DNA of 64,000 nucleotides from Amoebidium appalachense (lineage: Eukaryota > Protista > Ichthyosporea), in assembly GCA_963693365.1 (NCBI GenBank), contig CAVNZM010000001.1, positions 6,464,907-6,528,906 of the forward strand, written 5' to 3'. Below are positions 57,401 through 60,400 of the stretch, one piece after another. The notes under the pieces were generated by a model. It saw only the letters and a program-made list of their open reading frames with translations. It made no database searches and was not told where the DNA came from. Made by a program: the position numbers and the translations under genes. Numbering within the stretch: position 1 is the stretch's first letter; each line of letters begins with the position of its first letter.

Positions 57401-60400
57401 TCTCTTTTCTTTTTTTCCTTTTTTTTCCTTTCCTCCTCTTCTTCTTTTATTACTATTATTATTTTTTGTTTTTTTGGAAGGGGGGGTGGGAGGAGGGGGA
57501 GGGGGGGTCGCCACTTCACCTTCGGCTCCTAACCCCACCGATTCACCTTTCCTGTCACTTTTCTCACTGGTCCGTTATGCACAGAAATCATGGTACATCG
57601 TTCTCAAGTGTGTGTCCAACTTTGAAGTATCGACCATAACCACCCCAAAGGACAAATCTTCACAGGTATTTGTTATCTCCCCCAACATCTCAAATCCCCC
57701 CCCCCCCCCCCCCCCCCCCCCCCCCGCCGCCCCGTCCCCCCCTAATCGGTGGAATGGGATCTACTTATGATGCATACTTGGTGTGTGTGCATTATGTTCT
57801 CCCTCGTCAGTTTTGTACTTCGTATCACATGCAGCTTTCAATCCCTCCCCCCCTTCCCCCCCCCCCCCCCCTCCCCTCCCCCCCCCCCCCCCCCCCCCCC
57901 CAAAAAAAAAAAAAAAAAAAAAAAACTGCCCAGTCCCTCCTCCCCTTGCGCCTCCCCCTTGGGCCTATCGTCCCACACCCTTAATCCCCATGCATGCTAC
58001 TGATCCAACTATCGTCTCACACCCTTAACCCCCATGCACGCTACTGATCCAACTATGGCCCACACCCTTAACCCCCATGCATGCTACTGATCCAACTATG
58101 GCCCACACCCCCAGAACGACAGTGGGAGTATCGAGGGTGAGGATTCACGCAAGAAGAGCAGCCAGAGTGTGTAAGCACCCATATCCCCTGCTGCTTATGC
58201 TCTACTTTTCTCCTTGTTTTCTTTGGTTTTTGCTGCTAGCAGTTTTTGTAGATTTTGTTTTAACTGCTGCTCCTTGAACAACCCTGCTCGTCTTTGGCCA
58301 AGACGGGTGGACTCGCCTATTGCTGTTAAAACAAAGTATGGGTTGGGAACCACGCGCGAGAGGTTAAAGAGTCGAAACCCATGCTTTTGTGAGGCATAGG
58401 AACCCCCCTGATGATGGGCCCTGTTCAAGCGTCTTCTGCCTGCACGCTTAATTGTTTGGTTTCGGATTTCCCACGTTTGTGACGTTTTGTTGTTGCTCTT
58501 TGTTGTCTCCTCCACACTTCCGACCCTCTAACGCGTACATCCCCCCCCCCCCCCCCCCCCCCCCCCCCCAAAAAAAAAAAAAAAAAATGGTATGGGTGGG
58601 GGGGGTGGGGGGGGTGGGGGGGGTGGAGTGGAGGGAGGGGGGGGGGGGGGGGGGGGGGGGGGGGAGGGGATGAAAAGACGGCATAACGGTCAATCATCCT
58701 ACTCTATGCACAATGAGCTTCGATGGTCCGTATGCAATGGAGTGTGCTAGCATCATAAGTTCTTTCTCCCCCTCAGATAAGAAAATCCCTCTTCTACAGT
58801 GTCTTCTCTATCTGTGCACACACTTGTCTAAACTTTGCACAACACACAATCCTTATCTGCGCACGCATACACACAATAACACAGACTCTCTCTGTGTCAG
58901 TCAAAAACCGCACACCCACACCATCCTCATGCATACCGGCACACACACAAATCCTCTCTCTTTTGCTCCTACACATTCACCCACACACGCACAGGAGTGC
59001 ACGTGCGGGCGCGCATATACACCTGTTATCGTGGGTGCCGACGTACACATACACTGACATGCACTCACCCTTCCGCACTCATGCGTGTGCACACACACAC
59101 ATGGGCACGAGGACACACACACACACACACACACACACACACACACACACACACACACACACACACACACACACACACACACACACACACACACACACAC
59201 ACACACACACACACACAGGCTCTCCGACCACACAGGCAGTCTCATCAGCAGCATGGCCATCCCCGGGTCCTCCTCCCCCTCCAGCAATCCCAAGCTGTCC
59301 CATGACAGATACATGTCCCCTACATCTGCAAGGAGTAAAGGTACTCTTCCCAAGTATGTTCAGGGGATGGAGGGGTGAATGTGTGTGTGTGTGTGTGTGT
59401 GTGTGTGTGTGTGTGTGTGTGTGTGTGTGTGTGTGTGTGTGTGTGTGTGTGTGTGTGTGTGTGTGTGTGTGTGTGTGTGTGTGTGTGTGTGTGTGTGTGT
59501 GTGTGTGTGTGTGTGTGTGCACGGGTGTACCGGTGTGTGTGTAAGTCACATGTTTGTATGCCTGCATATGCATTCTTGTGTGTATGCGCACGTATACGTG
59601 CCCTTGCACTTAAATCAGTAACCAGTCATCGACCCTCTCCCCCCCCCCCCCCCCAACCCACCCACCCACCCACCCACCCCACCTCCGTCTTGTATTCTCT
59701 ACACAAAAGCTGTGTTGCATTGTCCGGTGTGAGCATTGTTCGCGGTGAATGTGAACTTCGTACTCTCTAGCACATTCTTACCACTCCCCCCAAAAAAACG
59801 CCATGTCTACAAAAAGCACACACGCTCACGGACACACCCTGCTCCTCCCCTGCCACACACACACACACACACACACACAGCACGTGAGGGTCGGCCTGCC
59901 AGTGAGGGTGGGGATCGTGAGCGAGCGCAAATGCTTCTAGTAGGTGTGGATGGTCTATTCAGCGGGTCTATGGGCCTGACGGGGGATGCCATTCTGCATT
60001 TCGTCACTGCCCTGTGTGCTGTGTCCTTGGAGGAATTGATGGTATCAACACTCCCCTCCCTCCCCCCCCCCCCCCCCCCCTCCCCCCCCCTCCCCCCCCC
60101 CCCCTCCCCCCTCCCTCTACCCTACCCACCCCACCCCATCCGACCACCACCATCACAGCAGACCCATAACGAGTGTATCCCCCAGCACCCTCCCCCTCCC
60201 CTTTTTTTGCCTTTTGCAAGGGAATTTTTGTTGAGTTTATTTGGTTCAGTAGGTGCAGAATGTGTTAGCTGTGTGTCTCCTTATTGGTCATGCCTCAAAT
60301 CTTTTGGTATTAGTGTGCCCCCCCACCCCCACCCTCCAAAAAAAAAAATTACCCTGTCCTGTTGTCCATTTTCAGCTGTTTTTATTCTGTTCGTTCCTGT

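Follow-up and report, generated by a model that had tools for sequence, protein, structure and literature searches.

Introduction

Hammerhead ribozymes of type SGC carry the cleavage site, the GAAA block and the CUGANGA block in that order (Eckert et al. 2023, PMC10085705). The six permutations treated in that paper presuppose that no more than 1–2 nucleotides (nt) ever separate CUGANGA from the paired strands next to it. The locus described here is a diverged repeat copy at positions 58273–58429 of a 64,000-nt stretch of the ichthyosporean Amoebidium appalachense (GenBank assembly GCA_963693365.1, contig CAVNZM010000001.1, positions 6,464,907 to 6,528,906), referred to below as the window; coordinates are those of the window and features lie on the plus strand unless marked otherwise. 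The copy has kept its pairing while its letters changed. An earlier note on this DNA took the paired base changes as evidence for a functional RNA and omitted the most unusual point, which is that the 5′ strand of stem II does not come after CUGANGA.

Other described elements share features with this repeat. Naiad elements are reported without canonical hammerheads, and eight are marked ‘HHR_half_core’, with the halves 35–50 nt apart (Craig et al. 2021, PMC8557442). The same work describes Chlamys elements, whose reported hosts are green algae, spike mosses and slime moulds; they target (C)n and (CA)n and have head-to-tail non-autonomous copies. Retrozymes without long terminal repeats (non-LTR) have hammerheads of which some cut well only as dimers, and a Penelope-like origin has been proposed for them (PMC7229834; bioRxiv 10.64898/2026.07.22.740005).

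The letters of the copies and their predicted folds point to a hammerhead with a split core. On balance it would cut after U58344, with docking on a neighbouring copy as the favoured route, and a likely non-autonomous Penelope-like retroelement would thereby have its tandem transcripts cut to units. Cleavage by the 58273 motif as such is quite probable.

Strand Order and Fold of the Motif

The hammerhead core set is present in full: CUGANGA at 58408–58414, GAAA at 58374–58377, and an NUH triplet at 58342–58344 with the A15.1–U16.1 pair. Stems I, II and III adjoin this core with 3, 5 and 11 pairs, and double changes occur in each. The order along the chain is the 5′ strand of stem II (58310), U16.1–U17 (58343–58344), GAAA (58374) and C3 (58408). 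A9 has no stem II strand within 1–2 nt, its best partner strand for stem II being at 58310, about 100 nt to the 5′ side of C3. A9 is instead followed by a U and then by a helix of three and eight pairs (helix IV), whose partner strands lead via a hairpin (hairpin V) to G10.1. The two core halves start 34 nt apart. Very probably the fold is that of a hammerhead core with A9 and G10.1 separated along the chain and held together by helices IV and V. Judged by its letters, the motif has what the sequence tests for a hammerhead ask for and fails types I–III and SGC on block continuity.

From its 5′ end the motif opens with the outer, closing part of helix IV (58273–58280, pairing with 58422–58429), which appears in single-sequence and alignment folds. 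The inner part is an invariant CCC (58282–58284) that pairs with 58416–58418, one nucleotide after A9; it is found by RNAalifold and by a constrained fold and has no covariation. Hairpin V (58286–58308) lies directly before G10.1, and its loop (58294–58301) is a perfect 8-nt palindrome. The 5′ strand of stem II (58310–58314, G10.1 at 58310) pairs in all five positions with 58369–58373 and lies upstream of the cleavage block. A linking helix, d (58315–58324, pairing with 58393–58400), connects stems II and I at their outer ends, and a kink-turn-like motif follows (58325–58329), with a 3-nt bulge, then AA, and the partner GA at 58391–58392. The 5′ strand of stem III with its extension (58330–58343, U16.1 at 58343) forms 11 continuous pairs. 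U17 and the 5′ strand of stem I occupy 58344–58347, where the triplet GUU fits NUH and three G-C pairs form with 58405–58407. The predicted cut falls between 58344 (U17) and 58345.

A 21-nt linker (58348–58368) with a small hairpin and a 6-nt palindrome (58353–58358) connects the cleavage block to the GAAA block. Behind it, 58369–58392 holds the 3′ strand of stem II, G12-A13-A14-A15.1 (58374–58377), the 3′ strand of stem III and the kink-turn GA. The 3′ strands of helix d and stem I and the block CUGAUGA (C3 at 58408, A9 at 58414) fill 58393–58414, and the 3′ strands of inner and outer helix IV fill 58415–58429, as placed by the alignment fold and the pair count. The presumed 3′ tail runs from 58430 to 58540, with a C-run from 58541; this boundary is inferred because the likeness to the tail of the copy at 44512 is weak and local.

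The strand order was examined with an order-free hammerhead descriptor (CUGANGA, GAAA, UH, and stems of at least 3, 5 and 6 pairs). In the window it matches exclusively at 44512, 44964 and 58273. Shuffles gave 0 matches in 20,000 per motif, and any match at all arose in 1 of 20 shuffles of the whole window. RNAalifold recovers stem II and helices IV and V unprompted. The Rfam hammerhead models of types I–III have no window match at gathering score, a search of 58150–58550 at E up to 10 returns just two unrelated chance matches, and the motif matches no Rfam family. On the minus strand within the motif there is no CUGANGA. Reading the motif across the junction of tandem copies as an ordinary hammerhead of type I, II or III was also considered and rejected, as the required order does not arise there. 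A single copy folds as a rod, with z of −1.8 for the 58273 copy and −3.2 for that at 44512.

Covariation between Diverged Copies

The copies at 58273 and 44512 were compared over six helices anchored without gaps on invariant motifs, which gives 36 pairs. Seven have double-sided changes, one has become G·U and one is broken. When the 16 observed substitutions were dealt randomly over the paired positions (100,000 runs; transition share 0.75 or 0.9), about one double change and 7–8 broken pairs were expected, and none of the runs reached seven doubles. When only the four variable helices are counted (25 pairs), 0 and 1 of the 100,000 runs reach the observed doubles; for two helices taken from the single-sequence fold of 44512 itself, 0 and 12 do so (both criteria). 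The helices behind these counts were picked with both copies in view, and the independent, intact full-length subfamilies number two only.

The closing helix has doubles in three of its eight pairs, all eight being kept with zero broken. Stem II has one double among five pairs. Within the first eight pairs of stem III (58336–58343 with 58377–58384) two are double and one U-A has become U·G, and the stem is 11 pairs long against 9 in 44512. Stem I (58345–58347 with 58405–58407) has one double, and the fourth pair of 44512 has gone (G-C to A×C). Helix d, anchored from the kink-turn side, has eight pairs and four double-sided differences from 44512, one of them as G·U, at the cost of one gap. As an alternative, RNAalifold uses 58315–58318 to extend stem II by pairing with 58361–58364, and these four extra pairs also covary.

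A sequence-only alignment of four copies gives six pairs with doubles against 1.7 in shuffles (1 of 500) and 0–3 in slid controls; by the tool’s own warning this figure is not a probability, and a gap conceals the stem I change there. The covariation counts are limited in that the copy at 50671 is 95% identical to 44512 and a minus-strand copy near 6583 is decayed. The core letters are identical to those of 44512 in 16 of 16 positions, compared with 21 of 47 neighbouring positions, a comparison that is partly circular in that the core anchors those segments. BLAST aligns the two copies only at their ends (39 nt on the 5′ side, 21 nt on the 3′ side), and the middle of the motif is therefore strongly diverged.

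These counts bear out most of the earlier note. The compensatory change in the closing stem is borne out by the three doubles, and the change of GACCC/GGGTC to GACTC/GAGTC and the other stem changes were confirmed by direct reading and by the pair-by-pair count. The change of CTGAGGA to CTGATGA does alter N7 alone, and CGAAAC is unchanged. Its GGAG/CTCC to GGG/CCC is right in holding one stem I double and omits the loss of the fourth pair. Selection on the RNA fold and the core motifs is upheld by doubles far above chance, tolerated G·U, the intact core and more double changes in the fragments of a third subfamily. The addition that selection acted ‘rather than on primary sequence’ goes too far, since the 5′ hairpin region is 35/39 identical and its 11 counted pairs are unchanged. 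As the best evidence for a functional RNA the covariation does establish a conserved fold; it does not show cleavage, for which the position after U58344 given in the note is the correct candidate site.

Copies, Subfamilies and Variation

Four full-length motifs lie in the window, at 44512, 44964, 50671 and 58273. The first two (44512–44672 and 44964–45124) belong to a head-to-tail pair at 44388–45244, between C-runs, with a 452-nt unit, 1.9 copies and 100% identity; contigs span the head-to-tail junction in all four sequencing runs that were consulted. The copy at 50563–50951 is 95% identical, lies in an intron between two Sec7 exons and is likely dead, its U16.1 having become C. A 5′-truncated copy at 39515–39659 runs from the CUGANGA block to the C-run (nhmmer reports a 3′ fragment starting at 39514), and a 5′-truncated relative of another subfamily ends in a C-run at 45408–45512. 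The decayed minus-strand relative (6562–6673; nhmmer E 3e-6) has lost the GAAA block and still has stem III, four of five stem II pairs and a hairpin V whose sequence differs. A possible further relic on the minus strand (48515–48531) has a cleavage block and a short hairpin, with a BLAST E of 0.095 and no nhmmer match. Plus-strand segments at 57754–57840 and 59700–59790 are 3′ tail fragments of further subfamilies, and each stops close to a C-run.

Logan contigs from four runs (X1–X4) were placed on 44300–45300 (254, 11, 9 and 18) and on 58240–58460 (47, 4, 1 and 1), and both subfamilies are therefore multi-copy. For the 58273 subfamily, one loose end hints at a tandem state. A third subfamily emerges from loose ends in X2 and X4, and contig 18 of X3 links its halves, sharing the flank and both breakpoints. 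Its fragments have a double-sided change in stem II pair 5, a stem III extension in which 8 of 8 visible pairs form with different letters, and the bulge, GA and partner GA.

Across the four runs there are 28 variant places: 6 in the 161-nt motif, 18 in 214 flank positions and 4 outside both. The 45 positions of the core and stems I–III hold none, as against the 18 in the flank (Fisher p 0.049).

Comparison with Known Ribozymes and Elements

The motif resembles type SGC (HRIMA-1 and variants; PMC10085705) in its block order (58343 < 58374 < 58408) and full core consensus, in stems I and II being pseudoknots, and in an extra helix that joins the outer ends of these stems (helix d here, with its one alignment gap). 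It differs in having the 5′ strand of stem II upstream, the CUGANGA block split at A9/G10.1 and two helices inserted. The linker is 21 nt in the 58273 copy and 22 nt in 44512, whereas that of type SGC is about 3 nt, and the motif is about 160 nt long with a kink-turn-like element, whereas type SGC motifs are about 80 nt. SGC motifs come from metatranscriptomes; the motif here sits in a eukaryotic genomic repeat.

Of 22 supplement places inspected in PMC8557442, five parse by eye as the same order plus helices IV and V, and one or two more are possible. Named by file order, these Naiad 3′ ends are Naiad_Amil, Naiad_Aacu and Naiad_Anas (coral) and Naiad_Obim and Naiad_Ovul (octopus). Like the 58273 motif, they have a helix directly after A9 and a hairpin directly before the stem II strand, and by eye this hairpin is closed by the same four pairs in the three coral ends. 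There, again by eye, the bases following A9 are paired to the strand upstream of hairpin V and are unable to make stem II, and a split core is therefore favoured. The available parts of Craig et al. 2021 (PMC8557442) describe no such fold for Naiads. The likeness rests on wiring and short motifs, and Naiads favour (TA)n, whereas the window element ends in C-runs. The octopus form has a kink-turn of opposite polarity five pairs from the core, a 5-pair stem III and a 2-nt linker; the coral ends have a 7-nt bulge instead.

The repeat is also like non-LTR retrozymes (PMC7229834; bioRxiv 10.64898/2026.07.22.740005), which are non-coding tandem units of a few hundred bases with one hammerhead each and have dispersed as well as tandem copies. 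The frames scanned over the 452-nt unit have no Pfam match, and the unit is close in size to retrozyme tandem units (about 150–450 nt). Retrozymes carry type I hammerheads, whose dimers swap helix III, and the window motif is not in the order CUGANGA, GAAA, cleavage site. Circular RNA has been shown for retrozymes, and the window element is known from DNA sequence. With non-autonomous Chlamys elements (PMC8557442) it shares (C)n insertion, 5′ truncation, head-to-tail copies and non-animal hosts.

Relatives elsewhere were sought by pattern scans of viral contigs (11, 0 and 0 matches), metagenomes (20) and prokaryote genomes (58). Under a relaxed descriptor none of these 89 has the architecture; the patterns were family-specific, and distant relatives would escape them. 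By eye, about six of the 11 viral matches (L002, L004, L006, L007, L010 and L011) look like ordinary type II hammerheads. One metagenome contig (L013, around 685) has short tandem repeats, each of which has by eye the look of a minimal type I hammerhead such as Penelope-like elements carry. Searches of the open-access literature found no published description of the split-core wiring, and the available part of PMC2632901 has no material on core insertions.

Kink-Turn-like Motif, Palindromes and Geometry

Between helix d and the stem III arm, the copies at 44512, 44964 and 50671 have a 3-nt bulge, GA and a partner GA. The standard kink-turn pattern (3-nt bulge, G·A, A·G; PMC5061560) fits these three, and in the 58273 copy, where the motif is non-standard, the first G is replaced by A. 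The bulge and GA also occur in two loose-end fragments and, by eye, in the decayed minus-strand copy. The distance from core to kink is 16 steps in both full copies and, by counting, in the third-subfamily fragments, and that from kink to C3 is 15 nt in both subfamilies. A loose end of run X1 behind 44556 appears to be a fourth variant, which resembles the 58273 subfamily and has the standard GA at the kink-turn position.

Both loops carry palindromes, with a different sequence in each of the two subfamilies, and this lends docking between copies weak support. The hairpin V palindrome is kept by a double change relative to 44533–44540, and the 22-nt linker of 44512 carries a different, 10-nt palindrome. 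Kissing of two hairpin V loops within one two-core dimer was considered and set aside as seemingly too long for the estimated spacing.

The active hammerhead has stems II and III stacked coaxially, which puts the outer end of stem II about 67 Å from the kink (at 2.8 Å per step), against 25–28 Å for helix d, and a single copy falls about 39–42 Å short of closing in both window subfamilies, compared with about 14 Å in the octopus Naiad form; these figures are a crude sum of helix lengths with no model, which tells against the argument drawn from them. The arm being too long for helix d, docking between copies is favoured. It also counts for docking that freeing the docking strands would cost 7–11 kcal/mol.

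Proposed Working and Its Alternatives

A lone copy would stay a kinked rod whose end loop contains the cleavage and GAAA blocks and whose internal loop contains the stem II strand and CUGANGA. The end loop of one copy would pair with the internal loop of another, and stem II could be extended by four pairs. Tandem copies would thereby be cut and a lone intronic copy would be largely quiet. Natural hammerheads that act as dimers are known, which counts for docking. This docking model is put forward tentatively, as a possibility somewhat short of even chances. The minimum-energy fold of the circular 452-nt unit retains the rod and does not separate cleavage within a copy from cleavage between copies. 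In analogy to retrozymes, tandem transcripts would yield 452-nt pieces, and these may, with a chance approaching even, be circularised and copied back into C-runs by an autonomous element.

Several findings weigh against a split-core hammerhead that cuts in this way. The available parts of Eckert et al. 2023 (PMC10085705) know of no insert longer than 1–2 nt beside CUGANGA, and core insertions in hammerheads often impair cleavage. Part of the Chlamys places in PMC8557442 was inspected by eye and has no split-core fold, though most places with CTGAGGA, CTGAAGA or CTGACGA were not covered and line breaks hide matches. The covariation of stems I and II alone is borderline, since the null reaches the two doubles in nine pairs in about 4–6% of runs (3,884 to 5,806 of 100,000; p 0.04–0.06). 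For the whole motif against its flank the difference in variation is not significant (p 0.087), and a G to T variant at 58371 (depth 229/658 in X1 and 19/23 in X2) would break a stem II pair unless compensated at its partner 58312, a position that the contigs do not show. The A in place of G at the first kink-turn position of the 58273 copy is accompanied by no listed variant in the contigs. The palindromes add little: 6 of 90 possible double loop changes would keep that of hairpin V, self-duplex ranks are 238 and 67 of 1,024, and the Naiad hairpins have no palindrome. No Penelope-like protein was found among the 86 window frames scanned.

The strongest competitor is the same split-core hammerhead with each copy folding and cutting alone, the kink-turn and melted weak outer pairs letting the rod fold back. 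Type-SGC ribozymes with a similar unexplained distance cleaved during transcription, which makes single-copy folding a strong rival, and those with 0-nt links are active (PMC10085705). G·U and A-U pairs abound in the middle of the rod, which is partly open in centroid folds, and the smaller shortfall of the octopus Naiad form could be spanned by its linkers. The shortfall in both window subfamilies speaks against such folding, as do the covariation of helix d and the arm fixed at 16 steps, which suggest that the rod is kept. Cutting by each copy alone is on these grounds unlikely, although it is to be taken seriously.

A hammerhead-derived fold might also have given up cutting and serve as a binding or priming structure for the reverse transcriptase of the element or for a kink-turn-binding protein. 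The 5′ hairpin held at sequence level (35/39) would suit such a role, as would the toleration of sense copies in introns, and the short stem I of the 58273 copy, with its three pairs, speaks for it and against cleavage. Yet all catalytic positions are kept and N7 alone varies, as catalysis would require, and the decayed copies at 50671 and 6583 lose these letters at once. A non-cutting structure is thus improbable.

Less probable again, and hardly to be expected, is an ordinary type-SGC hammerhead with an extra U after A9, in which the GG following that U and the UC preceding GAAA would make up a 2-pair stem II, and only the three final bases of the upstream strand would pair, as a pseudoknot. 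Every subfamily seen could form G-C and G·U there, and very short stems II are found in pseudoknot hammerheads. A single extra core nucleotide in a hammerhead is reportedly on record (de la Peña and Flores 2001), which would be the precedent. Covariation cannot separate the two readings, because all that of stem II falls in pairs 4 and 5, which are common to both. The duplex is weaker with the extra U (−3.5 and −0.9 against −7.1 and −5.0 kcal/mol), the conserved upstream GA would be left unpaired, and in the coral Naiads, by eye, no pairing is possible between the post-A9 bases and those ahead of GAAA.

That the motifs arose by chance in a genome rich in repeats, and owe their covariation to a hand alignment, is extremely improbable: the choice of helices from two independent full-length sequences leaves this some room, against which stand the unprompted RNAalifold helices, the null runs, the descriptor shuffles, the four-copy pair count, the gap-free anchoring, and the fit of independent fragments and unrelated Naiad sequences.

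Carrier Element and Genomic Surroundings

The copies are anchored in microsatellites, often 5′-truncated and partly head-to-tail. A conserved tail motif occurs seven times, always on the plus strand and 17–23 nt before a C-run. By these sequence features the carrier is likely a non-autonomous Penelope-like retroelement; the C-run may alternatively be a C-tail carried by the element itself. A LINE-like reverse transcriptase at 30319–32202 (Pfam RVT_1) is 95% identical to a EukProt protein labelled Amoebidium parasiticum, also an ichthyosporean, and 27–59% identical to its other relatives. It was set aside as a helper because no motif lies downstream of it. A second reverse transcriptase remnant appears near 4168–5083.

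The genes of the window are intron-rich. They comprise a multicopper oxidase (7441–10816, minus strand), whose homologues are 36–48% identical, DNAJC11 (16858–29030, minus strand) and a Sec7/BIG-type gene (about 50100–61600, plus strand). The 58273 copy lies in sense orientation between Sec7 exons (to about 52590) and an HDS exon (from about 61373). C-runs tend toward the sense strand of genes, and the element copies share that orientation. A candidate small exon at 58116–58178 has a splice-donor-like motif about 100 nt upstream of the 58273 motif; these 9 nt recur in the 5′ flank of 44512 (about 44436–44444), which may reflect an element-borne donor or chance. Positions 1731–2513 hold another, unrelated tandem repeat (about 110 nt), in which G-runs are interspersed.

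Implications

Should the motif cleave, CUGANGA and its stems need not stay joined, contrary to the assumption of Eckert et al. on which the six permutations rest. Cleavage would also explain how descriptor searches could miss a ribozyme class, including one reported missing from Naiad elements. The two natural subfamilies with their compensatory differences, together with the natural tandem pair, make tests of cleavage and of dimer action cheap and direct. The junction between A9 and G10.1 would be a new place for inserting domains in engineered hammerheads.

It is conceivable, though doubtful as a whole, that a hammerhead class opened at A9/G10.1 and clamped by two helices is common to animal Naiads and a unicellular relative of animals. 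The stem III arm, one helical turn longer here than in the octopus form, would keep a single copy from closing and so act as a copy-number gate, by which tandem transcripts are cut and lone intronic copies in pre-mRNAs are spared. A version outside animals, with another target repeat and a kink-turn of reversed polarity, would mean that the design predates animals, or arose by convergence, or was transferred.

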